Assembly: GCA_021299465.1 (NCBI GenBank)
Contig: JAJTHB010000012.1
Coordinates: 16,173-80,172 of the forward strand
Origin: Rickettsiales bacterium
GTDB taxonomy: Bacteria; Pseudomonadota; Alphaproteobacteria; Rickettsiales; SXRF01
Length of the DNA: 64,000 nucleotides
Direction of reading: 5' to 3'
The position numbers and the translations under genes are program-made. Positions 3,948-56,312 of the stretch are shown piece after piece. Below the pieces are notes generated by a model. It did no database searches. It was given only the letters and a program-made list of their open reading frames with translations, and had not been told where the DNA came from. The first letter of the stretch is position 1. Each line of letters starts with the position of its first letter.

Positions 3948-4487
3948 ATGAGCCCGCCGCGCAAACTAACGCCGGAAGAAAAAAAACTCTGGAAGCTTGT
4001 GACTAAGCAGACCCAGCCCTTGCACGCGCAAAACGAAGAAGCGCAAGAAGAAGAAAAATCTGCTACTAAACCCAAAATGGCCACAAAAAAAATAATGGCC
4101 CATAAAGTTCGCCCCAGAGTGGATATGCCAGCGCCAGTCAAAGAAGCGCTGAAAACCGGAAACATCAATGCGCTCGATAAAAATAATGGCGAGCGTTTCC
4201 GCAAAGGTGAAATGGCGATCGAGGCGATGCTTGATTTACATGGTCTCACTTACAGCAAGGCCGAGGCAGCGCTTAAACGTTTTATCGAACATAGCTACCG
4301 CTGCCAGAAGCGCAGCCTGCTTGTCATCACCGGCAAGGGCTCACGCGGTGAGGGAGTCCTTAGGCAAGCCTTACCGGTATGGCTGAATCACGAAGATCTA
4401 AGGCCGATGATTCTGGCCATCAGCCTCGCCAAAGCAAAACATGGCGGCAGCGGGGCATATTATGTACTACTTAAACGAAAACGCTGA
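3948..4487 (+). CDS. Smr domain protein
   Basis: C-terminal Smr domain (LDLHGLTYSKAEAALKRFI...LLVITGKGSRGEGVLRQALPVWL). Confidence 0.8.
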   Translation: MSPPRKLTPEEKKLWKLVTKQTQPLHAQNEEAQEEEKSATKPKMATKKIMAHKVRPRVDMPAPVKEALKTGNINALDKNNGERFRKGEMAIEAMLDLHGLTYSKAEAALKRFIEHSYRCQKRSLLVITGKGSRGEGVLRQALPVWLNHEDLRPMILAISLAKAKHGGSGAYYVLLKRKR

Positions 4488-38824: not shown

Positions 38825-39942
38825 GCTTTGCCCTCCGTGATGAGTTTTACGGAGGTCACCGTCGCGCCGCCTTCGGTGGCCGTGCGCCACCAGCGCGTCA
38901 GGTCTGGCATGTAATGCTGGTTAATCCATTGGCAGGCAAAGGCGCTTGGGCAGCGGATGATGACGGTGTTATCCTGCAAATCGGTGACGACCGTGTTGGC
39001 CAGCCAGCTGCGGCATGAGGCTTTGCTGTGCTTCTGCTGGAAGGCATCCAGCACCGCATCCCACGCCTGCTGCAAGCCCGGCACATCGCAGGCCGGTGGT
39101 TTGGGTGGATGACTGCCACCGGAGAATCCGCCTTCCAGAATCTTTGCCACATGGTCAGAGGATTCGACCGCCCAGCCAAGGTCAATCGTCCAATCCTTGC
39201 CTGCCACTTTGCCAAGGCAGAAATCGCTGCTTCCGATGACTTCGCAGAAATACCGCCATGCCCGGATGTCCTGCTGGAAGTCCTGCTGCCACCGCTCCAG
39301 CATTTGCTGTCTGCGTTTGGGTGTAATTCTGGCGCTTTGCCCTTTGGTCAGTTTGTTCTGAACCTCTGCATTCCAGATTTGCAGCATCTGCTCTGCAATG
39401 TCGTCTGGCAGGGCTTTTGTTTTCTCCCTCTCGCGCTCTCCCTCTGCTCTCGCTCTTATTTTTTTATCTGAAATCTGTTTTTTCTGCGTTTCTGCATCTG
39501 AGTCTGCAATCTGTAATCTGCTATCTGTATCTGGTGCCTTTTTTGCTGTTTTTGCGTCACCGCGTGCCACGTTGCGTTTCACCGCGTCACTTGCTGTCAC
39601 ATCGCGTTTCTTCGTGTCACGATGTTTTTGCATCCGCTCGGTGGAGGTGGTGTGCTGGCGCTTATCCCAAGCGGTGAGCCGGTTTTGCTCATTGAGCATT
39701 CCCTTGGTGTACATGGCGGCGATGATGGCCTCCACCGCCGCCGTTTCCATGTCCTGCATGATAGCGATTTGTTCAGCATCCACTTCCACCGTGCCGCGTG
39801 ATTTGTGCTGGGATGCCGCATCGAGCAAGCACGTCCAGACCGCCACGACGTGAGCCATCTTCTGTTTGGCACGATGCGCGATCACCTTGAGCTTAGGGTC
39901 GTGTGGCATACCGTGATACATCCTGAACCATTCCATCGCCAT
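38821..39942 (-). CDS. Putative phage/plasmid replication organiser with C-terminal DnaA-N-like domain
   Basis: The N-terminus (EWFRMYHGMPHDPKLKVIA...) resembles replisome-organiser N-domains. A charged low-complexity linker follows. The C-terminus (LQQAWDAVLDAFQQKHSKASCRSWLANTVVTDLQDNTVIIRCPSAFACQWINQHY) matches the DnaA domain I pattern. Confidence 0.45.
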   Translation of the reverse strand: MAMEWFRMYHGMPHDPKLKVIAHRAKQKMAHVVAVWTCLLDAASQHKSRGTVEVDAEQIAIMQDMETAAVEAIIAAMYTKGMLNEQNRLTAWDKRQHTTSTERMQKHRDTKKRDVTASDAVKRNVARGDAKTAKKAPDTDSRLQIADSDAETQKKQISDKKIRARAEGEREREKTKALPDDIAEQMLQIWNAEVQNKLTKGQSARITPKRRQQMLERWQQDFQQDIRAWRYFCEVIGSSDFCLGKVAGKDWTIDLGWAVESSDHVAKILEGGFSGGSHPPKPPACDVPGLQQAWDAVLDAFQQKHSKASCRSWLANTVVTDLQDNTVIIRCPSAFACQWINQHYMPDLTRWWRTATEGGATVTSVKLITEGKA

Positions 39943-39950
39943 GAGCCGGA

Positions 39951-40190
39951 CTATTCATCAAGCAGGCTCTGCTGCCCGTCATCGGCCTGTTCGGGGATGG
40001 GTGCCTGATCTTCCTGTTTCAGGGAAAGCGCCAATTCGATGCAGCCCTTGGTGAGCTTGGCGCGGTCTAATTCTATGGCTGCTTGCTTCTTTAGCTGGAG
40101 CAAGGTTTCCAGTTCCATCTTCCGCATCGTGTCGATTGTCAAACGGCAAATTTCATCAAAGGTTGAGATAGGTTTCGATTGGTCGTTCAT
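39951..40190 (-). CDS. Hypothetical small coiled-coil protein
   Basis: 79 aa with an RBS GGAGG 7 nt upstream. No family was recognised. Confidence 0.35.
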   Translation of the reverse strand: MNDQSKPISTFDEICRLTIDTMRKMELETLLQLKKQAAIELDRAKLTKGCIELALSLKQEDQAPIPEQADDGQQSLLDE

Positions 40191-40285
40191 GTGTGCCTCC
40201 GTTGGTTAAAACGGTTCGTTGTTCGAACTGTTCGGACAAAGGCTGCACGACGATATGGGGAGGCCGAGCGGGGGTTGGGTAGCCG

Positions 40286-40417
40286 TTTAGTGGCAGTTTA
40301 GAGAGAGGTTGGTGAGCCGGTTTAGCCCCACTTTATTAATATAAAATCGCGGTTATTTTCGTATTACCATTAAGGAGGGCAACCGAGGGGCAGTTCGGGG
40401 GCGCTTTAGTGAGAGGT
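40286..40417. repeat. Iteron-like repeats flanking an AT-rich stretch (candidate origin or operator region of the element)
   Basis: TTTAG occurs at 40286, 40297, 40321 and 40405. The 13-mer TTTAG(A/T)GAGAGGT occurs at 40297-40309 and 40405-40417. An AT-rich block (CTTTATTAATATAAAAT) lies at 40331-40347. Confidence 0.3.
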
Positions 40418-51287: not shown

Positions 51288-51364
51288 GACTGTTACTGCT
51301 TTGGCAGCTTTCTAACTGAACTCCTTGTTAAATTTGTTCATTGCTGTATTTTTGGTTAGTCAAA

Positions 51365-51385
51365 AATTAACAATTAACAATTAAC
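51365..51385. repeat. Heptanucleotide tandem repeat (AATTAAC)x3 15 nt upstream of the SIR2 start
   Basis: Perfect copies lie at 51365-51371, 51372-51378 and 51379-51385. They are followed by AAAACAAACAAC. Confidence 0.8.
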
Positions 51386-51400
51386 AAAACAAACAACGTC

Positions 51401-53194
51401 ATGGCGGCAGAACCTCCGGAAAGCGTCGATACTTTGGCAGAACCACTAGAGCTATCAGATGGTGATTTTATCGCACGCTACGTTCAGAGCGCCCCACAAA
51501 TTATGTGGTTTTTGGGCGCTGGAACTTCGCGCACCGCTGGTATGCCGACGGCTACGGATATTATTTGGGATTTGAAACGGAAATATTACTGCCGTGAGGA
51601 AAACCAAGACATCCAGCAGCACGATATCAATAACGAAAGCGTTAAGAGAAAAATCCAATCATATATGGATAGCAAGAGTTTCCCTGCGTTATGGAGCGCG
51701 GAGGAATACTCCTTCTATTTTGATTTAACCTTCAAAACGGATTACGCGGAGCAGCAAAAATATCTAACTGCCCAGCTATCAACGGATAAAATATCCCTGA
51801 ATATCGGCCACCGTGTTTTGGCTGCGCTGTTAGAAATGGGAAAGGCCAAGCTTGCATTCACAACAAATTTTGACACCGTGATTGAACGTGCGCACGCCGA
51901 AGTTACTGCAAAAGACCTGGCCACATATAACCTCGAAGGTTCTTATGCGGCGCTCGAAGCATTAAATGCTGAGAATTTCCCGATCTATGCCAAGTTGCAT
52001 GGAGATTTTCGTTACCAGAGCATTAAAAATCTGGCAGCAGATTTGGTCAGTAACGACGAGAAAATACAAAGCTGCTTTATGGCAGCGGCAACTCGCTATG
52101 GATTAGTCGTTTCGGGATATAGTGGCCGCGATCAAAACGTCATGACTATGTTTGATAAGGCCTTGGAGCAAAACAATCCATTCCCACAAGGTTTGTATTG
52201 GACAATTACCAAACCGAGCGATGTAACGGACTCAATAAAAGCCTTAATAATGAAGGCAAGAAGCAAAAACGTGAAGGCGTATGTCGTTATCGCCGGAACA
52301 TTTGACATCATGCTATCGAAGATATGGCGGCAAATATCGAATAAGCCTGATGCACTTGATAAAAAGGTCAGAACTGCGATTGCAAAGACGGTTTCCATTC
52401 CGCTGCCCGGAAAAAGCAGCAGCTTTCCTTTACTGCGTACCAATGCCCTTCTAATTACAAGTGTCCCCACAGAATGCGCTGCCATAAGCACTGTAACGGC
52501 TCCAGCATATCCTGCGTTTAAGGAAGCTATTAAGGCAATCTCGGACGTGGTTGCTGCGAAAACCGATAAGATATTACTCTGGGGAAATAGTGCCAATGCA
52601 TTAACTGCGTTGGCGGCGTTTACCCCCTCTCAACCGCAGAAACACCAGTTTGATGCACCTGAATCAGCAATTCAGCAAAGCACTCATATCAAGGCTTTTT
52701 ATGAAGAGGCGCTGGCAAATGCTTTGGTGAGCGGAAAACCTCTAAAATTACGGAAGGATAGGACGACTTTTTATGTGATTGTTGACCATGCACAAGTGAC
52801 AAACGCAGCTTTGAGTCCATTAAAAAATGCTGCCGGTTACCAAGGACGCGCTGGGGCAATATGTGGCTCTGTAAAGGCAGGTGTATTTTGGTCAGAGGCC
52901 GTAAGCCTACGCTTGGAAGAGCGGAATGGCGTTTTGTGGCTCTTATTGCGCCCCGATGTATGGATTTCTCCAATGGTGGAAAGACAGAATTGCTTGGATT
53001 TTGTTAAGGGGAGGAAGAAGTACCGCTACAATCAGAAAGCAAATGAATTTCTGGATGCGTGGGTGCAGGTACTATTGGGAGAATTAGGAGGAAAGGAAAT
53101 TGAAATTACTTATCTTCCTCAATCTGATTTCCCGGCAAAATTTACAATAAACACCCGTTCTGCATTCAGCGGTAAAGAGGTGCTCAATGGTTGA
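51401..53194 (+). CDS. SIR2-family NADase-like protein with about 300-aa C-terminal extension (SIR2-APAZ-like)
   Basis: SIR2 motifs are WFLGAGTSRTAGMPT, FTTNFDT and KLHGDF. The 597-aa size and the C-terminal extension match SIR2-APAZ architecture. A short-pAgo-like start is translationally coupled downstream. Confidence 0.6.
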   Translation: MAAEPPESVDTLAEPLELSDGDFIARYVQSAPQIMWFLGAGTSRTAGMPTATDIIWDLKRKYYCREENQDIQQHDINNESVKRKIQSYMDSKSFPALWSAEEYSFYFDLTFKTDYAEQQKYLTAQLSTDKISLNIGHRVLAALLEMGKAKLAFTTNFDTVIERAHAEVTAKDLATYNLEGSYAALEALNAENFPIYAKLHGDFRYQSIKNLAADLVSNDEKIQSCFMAAATRYGLVVSGYSGRDQNVMTMFDKALEQNNPFPQGLYWTITKPSDVTDSIKALIMKARSKNVKAYVVIAGTFDIMLSKIWRQISNKPDALDKKVRTAIAKTVSIPLPGKSSSFPLLRTNALLITSVPTECAAISTVTAPAYPAFKEAIKAISDVVAAKTDKILLWGNSANALTALAAFTPSQPQKHQFDAPESAIQQSTHIKAFYEEALANALVSGKPLKLRKDRTTFYVIVDHAQVTNAALSPLKNAAGYQGRAGAICGSVKAGVFWSEAVSLRLEERNGVLWLLLRPDVWISPMVERQNCLDFVKGRKKYRYNQKANEFLDAWVQVLLGELGGKEIEITYLPQSDFPAKFTINTRSAFSGKEVLNG

Positions 53195-53324
53195 AACTCG
53201 TAATCAACTATCTGCATATCGAGCCCTGCCAGAACCAGAGCTGATTTTCCATCAGCTTAAAAAAGACACGCACCCATTGAGAGGGTTGGTGAAACACGGT
53301 CCTTATGGGCAGTCACTTGGCTAG
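53187..53324 (+). pseudogene. 45-codon remnant of a short prokaryotic Argonaute gene (N-terminus only)
   Basis: MVETRNQLSAYRALPEPELIFHQLKKDTHPLRGLVKHGPYGQSLG*. The EPxLxF...(R/D)GLxxxGP pattern resembles short-pAgo N-termini. The ATG overlaps the SIR2 stop (ATGGTTGA). Confidence 0.45.
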
Positions 53325-54592
53325 CCACCTTAATTGCACAGATAGCATGTCATCAAAATGAACTGCCGCAAGGTAGTCCATGCTCACCAGTTATCACAAA
53401 TCTCATCACGCATATTCTCGATGTCCGCCTAACACAACGGGCAAAAAAATATGGCTGCACATACTCGCGCTATGCAGATGACATTACATTTTCCACGAAT
53501 CAGAAGGCATTCCCTGAAAAACTAGCTACGCCATCCGATAAGCCCAATCAATGGATGGTTAGCAGCGAAATCGAAGGCATTATCAAACACTCTGGTTTCA
53601 ATATAAATCCGGCGAAAACACGCCTCCAGTTTCGCCCATCCCGGCAGATGGTTACAGGCCTCGTCGTTAATAGAAAAGTGAACATTAAAAGCGAGTATTA
53701 CCGTTACGCACGCTCGATGTGTCATGCGCTATTTACGCTGGGTTCTTTCTTCCGTCCCGGCAGCGACAAACCCACATCTCTCAGGCAACTCGAAGGCATC
53801 TTGAGTCACATTCACTTCATTAAAGAATTCAGCCGCACTACAGATGAACTGACTCTCCGTAAAAAAGTGATGGAAAATGCAAAGGGCAAAGAACGGCCTA
53901 AACTGGATGCAGCAACAGAACTGTATTCTAAATTCCTCTATTTTCGCTATTTTGTGGCGCTGGAGCGGCCACTCATTTTATGCGAAGGCAAGACCGACAA
54001 TATCTACCTCAAAGCTGCCATCAAGCAGTTGGCGAAGAAGAATGTATTCACATTCCCACATGCAGTCGATTTCTTCCCATTTACGCGGCGAGTCAGCGAA
54101 GTAATGAGAATCCATGATGGAGCCCCGGCACTAAAAAACTTCATTGAACATTATACGAAAAGCACGACATTCAAATTTCAGACTCGATCACATCCCGTGA
54201 TTGTTCTGCTGGATAATGATGACGAAGCCAAAAAGGTGATAGACCTCCTGAGCAATAATTTCAAAAAAGATGGCGTTACATACGATCAAAATAGCAATTT
54301 CGTATATCACGTCATTTCTAATTTATACGTCATGCTATTGCCTAAGCCGACAGACACGGCGAAAAATAAAATTGAAGATTTCTTTAATCCATCGGTCATC
54401 GCAACTGTGCTGGAAGGTAAAACTTTCTCAGCGGAGAACGGCAAAAAATTCGATAACCAAAAGCATTACTCAAAACAGGTATTGGCAACAAAAATTGTGC
54501 GCCAGACGCAGGACAGCATAGATTTCAGCAATTTCAAGCCGGTGCTAGAACTGTTATCCAATACCATTCAGTCTTATACTGCTCCCAATTAG
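53325..54592 (+). pseudogene. 5'-truncated retron-type reverse transcriptase fused to a TOPRIM domain (retron Ec67/Eco2-like architecture)
   Basis: RT similarity starts at about 53325, with no start codon there. LPQGSPCSPVITNL, YSRYADDITFS (YADD) and QMVTGLVVNRKVN are retron-like. The C-terminal TOPRIM has ILCEGKTDNIYL and VIVLLDNDDEAKK. RT motifs 1-4 are absent. Confidence 0.7.
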
Positions 54593-54861
54593 GCCGCAGC
54601 TACACTTAGCGGTTCCCACTGGAAGGTTTTGCCATCCAGTTGCGGCGGGGACTTGTAAATCTCCACCCAGTCTTTTATAACCACCTGTAATTGCTCAACC
54701 CGGTTCGAGTTTAGTCCGCGGGGGAGCACCATCCGTGTTCGTTGATTTTTGCTTTGCAAAAATCTAGCTTCGACCAGATTAGGCGCAATCCAATCGATGG
54801 TGTAAGCGTACGAAGCGAATGCCTCGCCGTAGTCCGACAGGGCGAAAGCGGGCGAGTTCGA
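54589..54861 (-). pseudogene. Start-less 90-codon open frame, probable C-terminal gene remnant
   Basis: Open frame ...SDYGEAFASYAYTIDWIAPNLVEARFLQSKNQRTRMVLPRGLNSNRVEQLQVVIKDWVEIYKSPPQLDGKTFQWEPLSVAAA*. There is no plausible start or RBS at its 5' end, and the family is unknown. Confidence 0.25.
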
Positions 54862-54899: not shown

Positions 54900-56312
54900 C
54901 TAAATCTGAACCGCTTGCTCGCTGGCGGCGGTGTCGCGTCGCTCTATTTTTGCAGCCCAGCTATTTTTTTGCGATAGCGCGGTCATTTTTTCTCGCAGCG
55001 CCGCTTCAACTTGTGGCTGAGTTAAGCTCACATGCGCAAGGCCAGAGACATACGCCGCTGCTTCAGAAATGGCCTGCTCGCGCACCTCTTCCGGCTGCTT
55101 GACGAGCACATTTGCCGAGAGCAGCACCAGATCATTCATTATGCTTCGATCATCATCAGTTTCTTTGGGGCGTTTTGAGCCAGAAAGCCCAAACAAGCTA
55201 TGGGCGACGAGAAAGGAAGATGCGGTGAGCACATTCCATAAATAATCATGCTGCTTGGCCTGAGCATATTTTAATTCTGCAGCATTGCCATGCGCTCGTT
55301 TGATTGCATTTAACCCATCGACACGTTCTTTATTGGCGCCGATAAGATTGAGCACGTTGTTACTCATTGCCATCGGCATAGCAATCCATGCGCGCGGATT
55401 GCCGGTGATTTTATCCTTTAGCGTTTCTGGCGGCGGTTCCTTACCATCAATCACATTTCTGCTGCCATCCAATATTTTATGGCCACGCGGTTTTTCGAGT
55501 AAAAATGTTGATGCCCACGCGGTTGTAATCAACGCACCAGCGGCAACCTTATATACATTTCTGTTGTTGCTTGCGTGATCCAATTTCAATCCGGCGTGGA
55601 TCATAAAAAGGCCACCGGTCAGTTCCGTCAGGCATTTTACTTGCCCAATATGCTTATGCAGCCAATGGTGAGTGGCTTTAAGTGCACCGCTCTGATGAAG
55701 CGTATCAGGATTAAGGGGATCGACCTGCGAAAGAGCAACCCCTTTTTTATGCAAATGCTTTTTTAATCCCTGCGCTGCTGCCTGTAATTCTTCATCTCCC
55801 TTTTCGGTGCCATAAAAGGTCATTAAAGCGTCGCCAAGAGCAAATGCGCCGCCGGTCGCGATTTCTGACCAGTCGTTGTTACTCAGCTTTCCTGTTCGGT
55901 TATGACGTCCGCGCTGAACGCCCGATATCATTAAGGCAATATTGCCTAAATCATAAAAAAGTGCCGAAAAAAACAATGATTTGCCGCGCACACGTTCAGA
56001 AAATTTTTGTGGTGGCTGGTTGGTTTTGACCAGATCTTTTTCAACACCGTTATGCGCAAGATCGAGTTTTTCTAGATTTTCAATAAAAGACTTTTCATTT
56101 TTGAGACCGCGCACCTGAATAACATTGCGCCCATCCTTGGTATCCATAAGAGTCGAGTAACCACGAGCGCCCAGTTTATTTCTAAGATTTTCCAGTTGCT
56201 CGCCAGGTGCATCCGCTACAGCGATCATTTCTGCCTGCGTGACATTGCCGCGCACCGTCGTGATTTCAACACGATCAATCATGGTGGCGTTTTTGTAACG
56301 GTAAATGGTCAT
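54900..56312 (-). CDS. Hypothetical polytopic membrane protein with soluble N-terminal domain
   Basis: 470 aa. A soluble N-terminal region of about 110 aa is followed by about 6 weakly hydrophobic helices and a C-terminal helical tail. No family was recognised. Confidence 0.5.
   Translation of the reverse strand: MTIYRYKNATMIDRVEITTVRGNVTQAEMIAVADAPGEQLENLRNKLGARGYSTLMDTKDGRNVIQVRGLKNEKSFIENLEKLDLAHNGVEKDLVKTNQPPQKFSERVRGKSLFFSALFYDLGNIALMISGVQRGRHNRTGKLSNNDWSEIATGGAFALGDALMTFYGTEKGDEELQAAAQGLKKHLHKKGVALSQVDPLNPDTLHQSGALKATHHWLHKHIGQVKCLTELTGGLFMIHAGLKLDHASNNRNVYKVAAGALITTAWASTFLLEKPRGHKILDGSRNVIDGKEPPPETLKDKITGNPRAWIAMPMAMSNNVLNLIGANKERVDGLNAIKRAHGNAAELKYAQAKQHDYLWNVLTASSFLVAHSLFGLSGSKRPKETDDDRSIMNDLVLLSANVLVKQPEEVREQAISEAAAYVSGLAHVSLTQPQVEAALREKMTALSQKNSWAAKIERRDTAASEQAVQI

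Follow-up and report, generated by a model that had tools for sequence, protein, structure and literature searches.

A 5'-truncated retron RT-Toprim gene joined to a truncated short pAgo gene in a Rickettsiales bacterium: a probable scar of defence-island decay

Two different defence systems have left joined remains in the DNA analysed here, a stretch of 64,000 nucleotides from a Rickettsiales bacterium that is called the window throughout. The beginning of a short pAgo gene, preceded by its SIR2-APAZ partner gene, runs directly into the 5'-truncated RT-Toprim gene of a retron of the Ec67/Eco2 family. This arrangement is very probably an inactive scar produced by one illegitimate recombination, which would have joined pAgo codon 44/45 to RT-Toprim codon 158. 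The feature is not a new kind of system; it is most likely a degenerate, non-functional member of two known families.

The retron and SIR2-APAZ/pAgo remnants

Positions 53324..54592 of the + strand encode part of a type I-C retron RT-Toprim protein (Ec67/Eco2 family), namely its last 422 residues, from codon 158 to the end (422 codons plus the stop). The first-pass annotation had recognised in this region a retron-type RT-Toprim fusion like that of Ec67/Eco2, and profile and structure matches bear this out. PADLOC RT-Toprim_I-C matches the remnant at 1.4e-144 (profile 152-553/568), and its score with NCBIfam NF038237 (retron_Ec67_fus; full name retron Ec67 family RNA-directed DNA polymerase/endonuclease), 468 bits, exceeds the cut-off of 450 (profile 148-572/572). 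The PDB structures of Eco2/Ec67, 9lm3 and 9i2f, align to it at 5.4e-75 over Eco2 residues 150-576, and Pfam RVT_1 covers it at profile positions 115-194/205 only. An affinity with group II intron or other non-retron RTs, which had been considered as the contrary outcome, was not found: TIGR04416 (group II intron) reaches 32 bits against a cut-off of 300, and Drt2 reaches 35 against 390.

The remnant keeps RT motifs 4-7, the thumb and a complete Toprim domain with EGxxD and DxD. Its translation from 53324 reads ATLIAQIACHQNELPQGSPCSP...YSRYADDITFS...QMVTGLVVN...CEGKTDN...LLDNDDE..., with the YADD motif at 53471-53482 and the VTG region of the RT at 53651-53659 (both +). The Toprim domain said to follow the RT part is located by EGKTD at 53984-53998 (+; motif IV, EGxxD), aligned to Eco2 E374 and D378, and by DND at 54212-54220 (+; motif V, DxD), aligned to Eco2 D460 and D462; these four residues and E515 are all conserved (motif definitions from PMC7736814, Eco2 residue roles from PMC12405507). 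RT motifs 1-4 had been reported as missing. Motifs 1-3, including the motif A Asp, are indeed absent, but motif 4/B (LPQGSPCSP) is retained; the lost N-terminal part, whose count had been proposed as a check, amounts to 157 codons. With respect to the definition of a type I-C retron, the family score lies above the curated cut-off and a Toprim domain with EGxxD and DxD is C-terminally fused to the RT; a whole RT domain (motifs 1-7, motif A Asp, YADD) is lacking, as motifs 1-3 are absent, and so is an adjacent upstream msr/msd with a1/a2 repeats in the window.

The reading frame is open back to 53261, immediately after a TAA at 53258-53260, and holds no ATG, GTG or TTG ahead of 53555, in agreement with the earlier description of an open frame with no start codon upstream. 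The longest ORF with a canonical start is 53555..54592 (+), of 345 aa, equivalent to Eco2 residues ~225-586. One public annotation lists the fragment as 53363-54592, with a product of 409 aa (P0283), which would place its start at a CTG (53363).

The SIR2-APAZ gene of the short-pAgo (SPARSA-type) operon, at 51401..53194 (+), is of full length (597 codons as listed) and has lost its partner. It matches PADLOC Aga_SIR2-PNTD1-PNTD2 (4.5e-186, profile 3-556/558) and Pfam SIR2_2. Four intact SIR2-APAZ/pAgo operons were compared with it, L002 and L025 at 93% nucleotide identity and L019 and L020 at 76-77%. The SIR2-APAZ protein shares 95-97% identity with its counterparts in L002 and L025, and its alignment with those in L019 and L020 runs from end to end. 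A further junction at the 5' end of the gene was rejected, since L019 and L020 have the N-terminus of the window too; a TTG near 51431, as in these two loci, may be the native start. Directly 5' of the SIR2-APAZ start there is an AT-rich stretch with three tandem copies of TTAACAA (~51372-51392).

The pAgo operons are collinear with the window from ~51433-51452 to ~53323-53327, where DNA homology to all four ends, and then continue into a pAgo of ~473 aa (473-474 aa in the intact relatives). In the window the short pAgo remnant (53187..53324, +) consists of 44 native codons followed by a TAG formed at the junction (45 codons as listed), and it matches PADLOC pAgo_I at 3.8e-11 over profile positions 2-40/457. 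About 429 of ~473 codons are gone, and tblastn gave no credible match to the remainder of pAgo anywhere in the 64-kb window.

The junction and the intact relatives

The recombination junction lies at 53322..53323 (+) and consists of a 2-nt TA microhomology, as deduced by comparing the window with L002 for pAgo and with L024 and L001 for the RT. Around it, the pAgo sequence is GCTATCCA, that of the RT GGTAGCCA and that of the window GCTAGCCA. Aligned at the breakpoint, the parents read ...TTGGCTA/TCCAAA (pAgo) and ...GCGGTA/GCCACC (RT), and the window reads ...TTGGCTAGCCACC. The shared TA sits in an 8-nt patch in which the parents agree at 6 of 8 positions, and the join contains no filler bases. 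Two defence systems had been described as broken and joined within about 10 nt (53320-53330); the crossover falls inside that interval, and the search for microhomology recommended for 53315-53335 yields these two nucleotides.

In L002 and L025, pAgo continues past the junction site as GGC TAT CCA. The join converts pAgo codon 45 from TAT to TAG, ending pAgo after 44 codons, and places RT codon 158 in another frame than pAgo; both genes share the same orientation. DNA homology to intact retrons begins exactly at 53322 (L024) and 53324 (L001). The RT part that was lost comprises 157 codons (471 nt), that is, the fingers and palm motifs 1-3, motif A among them. Besides these codons, the whole leader with its ncRNA gene and ~429 pAgo codons have gone.

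An intact copy with its ncRNA had been proposed as a check, and such copies exist in relatives. Among intact retron proteins the closest is P0288 (593 aa, L024), whose DNA is 97.5% identical to window positions 53322-54576; a second intact retron, P0001 (L001), shows 92% nucleotide identity over 53324-54733. Motif A of P0288 reads YVLNLDLADFF and is absent from the remnant of the window. Loci L001, L009 and L010 have a perfect inverted repeat of 14-15 nt 5' of the RT, with its arms 112-121 nt apart and the second arm ending ~25 nt ahead of the RT start codon (ATG). The a1 repeat sequence is RGGCTTATGGAYA, and among the loci the repeat varies with compensatory changes (TGGGCTTATGGATA, TAGGCTTATGGATA and ATAGGCTTATGGACA, each with a matching partner). 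Such a covarying inverted repeat is the a1/a2 signature of an msr/msd gene.

The window had been said to lack any upstream msr/msd region, and both pattern search and BLAST agree. The a1/a2 motif occurs in the 64-kb window at chance frequency only, its best match having 2 mismatches, and the 5' part of the retron has no BLAST match there. An RT N-terminus hidden in another frame had been held out as a possible counter-finding, and tblastn with the 157 missing residues found nothing credible throughout the 64 kb. An Rfam scan finds two tRNAs only in the window and no retron family match in the intact retron leader. Megablast of the island against E. coli genomes gave no match.

The source is a metagenome-assembled contig and each half of the join has its own separate intact relatives; the junction could for these reasons be suspected of being an assembly chimera of two unrelated loci, an objection that had already been raised. 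The chance of this is negligible. A 701-nt junction probe is fully present in 7 runs from at least 5 freshwater/lake studies (2018-2025), and Logan contigs cross the junction without differences and with even depth on both sides. These contigs include one of 3.9 kb in run X1, an identical one in X2 that is maybe from the same data, and contigs independent of X1/X2 in X3 (2.3 kb), X8, X10 and X11. The same gene order, namely RND pump, SIR2-APAZ, 45-aa ORF, 345-aa ORF, 470-aa gene and 575-aa gene, is seen in five JGI metagenome contigs obtained from different samples. Four of the five are 100% identical over 6 kb, and the fifth (L030, sample 3300008105) has three base differences (equivalents of window 51581, 52867 and 55410) and a 165-nt deletion at 55795-55959, with the remnant unchanged. 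The junction is real, since contigs of at least five JGI samples, and Logan contigs of several independent studies, all contain identical sequence across it. Moreover, two shared nucleotides are too few to mislead an assembler. The intact pAgo body was not found in two carrier samples.

Origin and age of the join

Positions 51300-54733 have a GC content of 40-47%, alike in the SIR2-APAZ, pAgo and RT segments, versus ~53% in both flanks. They lie between an RND efflux operon and a function-unknown gene, which is followed by gcvTHP. Housekeeping proteins encoded nearby cluster with proteins that bear the name 'Alphaproteobacteria bacterium' MAG. The segment is a small low-GC island that was acquired horizontally. 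Its right end, 54733, is where the match to the retron cassette of L001 and L021 stops: the 3' flank of the cassette (54593..54733, +) is 96% identical to L001 2069-2209 and 95% identical to L021 6877-7018, and a contig of run X6 with the retron 3' end diverges at the position equivalent to 54733. A terminator-like hairpin (54724-54740) straddles this end.

The 3' flank also contains, directly after the RT-Toprim stop, an element of ~95-140 nt (core 54626-54720) that resembles a dispersed repeat. L001 has a second copy of it at 4001-4123, so that the two L001 copies flank hmp-rrf2, and it was found in at least two further contexts among lake metagenomes. A small ORF overlapping it (54589-54759, -; 56 aa) was rejected as a gene, as it has 15 short, ragged homologue clusters, belongs to the dispersed repeat and has no Pfam match. 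A 470-aa ORF at 54900-56312 (-), without Pfam, PADLOC or NCBIfam match, adjoins the island.

A single deletion or recombination event inside a defence island had been suggested as the origin of the join. The filler-free 2-nt join agrees with this suggestion; the tandem ancestor that it implies was not found. The most economical origin would be a deletion of at least ~2 kb between adjacent systems in the horizontally acquired low-GC island. The ancestor would have been a tandem array of SIR2-APAZ, pAgo, msr/msd and RT-Toprim in the same orientation, and the deleted stretch would have comprised parts of pAgo (~1.29 kb) and RT (0.47 kb) and, between them, the retron leader (~0.24 kb). A single deletion fits because the two segments share orientation and GC content and meet at a 2-nt junction without filler, and we consider it plausible, with a chance of about one half or slightly above. 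A pAgo operon in tandem with an intact retron was found neither in the genome, JGI metagenome and viral contigs searched nor in the contexts of P0001, P0002, P0003, P0122, P0123, P0280 and P0288.

Since no tandem ancestor was found, the join could also have arisen in two steps, a possibility that we regard as somewhat unlikely. During horizontal transfer, illegitimate or one-sided homologous recombination would have replaced part of a resident system with incoming DNA carrying the other one, and the two systems would never have been intact neighbours. The close pAgo operons and the close retrons were not found adjoining each other: L019, L020 and L025 are in restriction-modification/GmrSD islands (the L002 contig ends too soon), and the retrons of L001, L009, L010 and L024 stand alone in unrelated contexts. 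The retron cassette is, moreover, a compact module with a defined right end that occurs in at least five contexts. The remnant itself is a mosaic, L024-like (97.5%) to 54576 and L001-like over 54577-54733, and therefore retron cassettes do recombine; the L001-like tail comprises the last 5-6 codons and the 3' flank, where L024 and L023 have another C-terminus and a 75-aa ORF downstream. The site 5' of the 470-aa gene is also variable: one related contig has there, instead of the island, genes for a 535-aa protein and a GT2 glycosyltransferase. However, replacement in two steps requires more events than one deletion, the segments agree in their low GC and in orientation, and there is no second junction or mobile-element end at or near 53322.

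Two other copies of this retron clade, with 87-97% nucleotide identity, proved to be truncated at the 5' end too, each independently. The first is in L023 (8001-9386; P0284, 461 aa), from a related alphaproteobacterial MAG; the dnaA of this MAG and window 39361-40293 share 92% identity. Its junction, at L023 8098, corresponds to window 53346, 22 nt further in. A new leader of 32 codons, beginning with ATG, reads through in frame to give P0284, and a gene for an AAA_15/AAA_21 ATPase lies downstream. The other remnant, P0010 (291 aa; L021 5654-7018, L022 328-1692), has its cut at codon 289, a point that coincides exactly with the end of an IS3-family element, and a PRTase-associated retron adjoins the remnant. 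Like the window, these copies have a complete Toprim and have lost the 5' part and the ncRNA; they differ from it in their breakpoints and in their partners. The presence of a full Toprim in 3/3 copies is no evidence of preferential retention, because the query was C-terminal.

The L021 island comes after cydAB and an HTH_17 gene, a neighbourhood which in L002 holds an intact SIR2-APAZ/pAgo operon. A more distant RT-Toprim, P0069 (L032 3682-5407, on a 630-kb long-read contig), is split into ORFs of 123 aa and 468 aa by a frameshift within motif A. It was rejected as a further truncation, being a frameshift split in a long-read assembly, and may be either a genuine pseudogene or the result of a sequencing error.

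With respect to age, the remnant shows a dN/dS of 0.08 against intact L001. When changes were polarised with three close sequences, L001 being the outgroup, the lineages showed 7 synonymous and 3 non-synonymous changes in the remnant of the window, 8 and 2 in that of L023, and 5 and 1 in intact L024. The SIR2-APAZ branch of the window, with 14 synonymous and 7 non-synonymous changes, resembles those of intact relatives. The truncation is probably recent, because neither remnant has an excess of amino-acid change and the broken allele hardly varies between lakes or from year to year. In L030, an A>T change at the equivalent of 51581 turns SIR2-APAZ K61 into a stop codon (K61*), which is consistent with a loss of constraint, and the 470-aa gene carries the 165-nt deletion plus a substitution.

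Expression, function and comparison with known systems

The recombination created the TAG that ends pAgo and removed both msr/msd and RT motifs 1-3. On the retron side the sensor would be dead, because without these parts no msDNA would be made. The retron of the window is accordingly predicted, from its missing parts, to be negative for msDNA production and phage defence. On the other side, the SIR2-APAZ NADase would be left without an Argonaute partner to activate it, and the system would not work.

In Eco2, the RT makes a branched msDNA, which brings the protein together as a trimer and keeps the active sites of Toprim caged; the phage nuclease DenB degrades the msDNA, the freed Toprim then cuts tRNA, and defence is lost in RT-dead and in Toprim-dead mutants (PMC12916289). 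Eco2 fragments consisting of Toprim alone (N267-, S300- and N337-S586) act as non-specific RNases and are toxic, while the full-length fusion is non-toxic (PMC12405507). A product initiated at 53555 would be such an uncaged nuclease, equivalent to Eco2 225-586. This ATG was rejected as a newly gained start, because intact P0288 has the equivalent Met.

Read-through transcripts from SIR2-APAZ probably extend over the RT-Toprim remnant, which would be translated little or not at all. Metatranscriptomes, all of them tiny, contained no part of the locus. Poor translation would be expected because no ribosome-binding site precedes the first in-frame canonical start (53555), which lies 231 nt into the fragment; scans with E. 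coli-type consensus sequences found neither a Shine-Dalgarno-like sequence nor a + strand promoter-like site before this start. Silence of the remnant would be expected to be tolerated and its expression selected against, because Eco2 Toprim fragments without the RT are toxic RNases.

Against a dead scar it can be said that the remnant ORF is fully intact, retains all Toprim catalytic residues and has changed mostly at synonymous sites. An intact ORF and a synonymous bias are also expected under continued selection, and the remnant could have been kept as a Toprim nuclease devoid of RT and msDNA, acting as a toxin or stand-alone effector and possibly expressed on the SIR2-APAZ transcript. We consider this quite improbable. 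In its favour, the frame of 422 codons is open with every catalytic Toprim residue in place, three independent 5' truncations keep the whole Toprim, and that of L023 gained an in-frame ATG leader. In addition, the two remnant lineages pooled have 15 synonymous versus 5 non-synonymous changes (under neutrality, the probability of at most 5 non-synonymous changes among 20 is ~4e-6 to 4e-5), but these substitutions may be older than the truncations, as carriers of the junction differ at 3 bases, none of them in the remnant. Furthermore, sampling was biased, since a C-terminal query could find C-terminal fragments only, and the copy in the window has no start codon, ribosome-binding site or promoter by the E. 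coli-type consensus scans. The toxicity of Eco2 delta-RT fragments to their host (PMC12405507) and the existence of a nonsense allele of the neighbouring SIR2-APAZ gene (L030) also argue against it. The more general proposal, that RT-less Toprim remnants of type I-C repeatedly arise and persist because the freed nuclease is useful alone, is equally doubtful.

An inactive scar thus being the preferred reading, the window offers a base-resolved natural example of defence-island decay, in which one join at a 2-nt microhomology disables two systems. It leaves behind an orphan SIR2-APAZ gene and the gene of a potentially toxic, uncaged Toprim nuclease. No new mechanism is revealed, and the scar is of an ordinary kind for defence islands. 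It also calls for caution in annotation, as the fragment passes the NF038237 cut-off and pipelines may name it an intact retron RT. The three truncated copies form a small natural test set for the tolerance of RT-less Toprim proteins and for the rate at which orphaned defence genes are lost.

SPARSA systems need both of their subunits for defence. The window resembles them in having the SIR2-APAZ subunit, whose gene overlaps the pAgo start (ATGGTTGA) exactly as in L002, L019, L020 and L025. It differs from them in its pAgo, which is reduced to 44 of ~473 codons, without the MID or PIWI domain.

The 345-aa ORF of the window can also be compared with the Eco2 delta-RT constructs (N267-S586 and shorter), being, like them, an RT-less Toprim fragment. 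In contrast to these constructs, it is natural, keeps more of the RT (the end of the palm and the thumb) and has no evident expression signals. With respect to complete Eco2 (Ec67, type I-C1), the gene of the window lacks RT residues 1-157, the a1/a2 ncRNA gene and a start codon, but shares with it YADD, the VTG region, the EGxxD and DxD motifs of Toprim and the equivalents of E374, D378, D460, D462 and E515.
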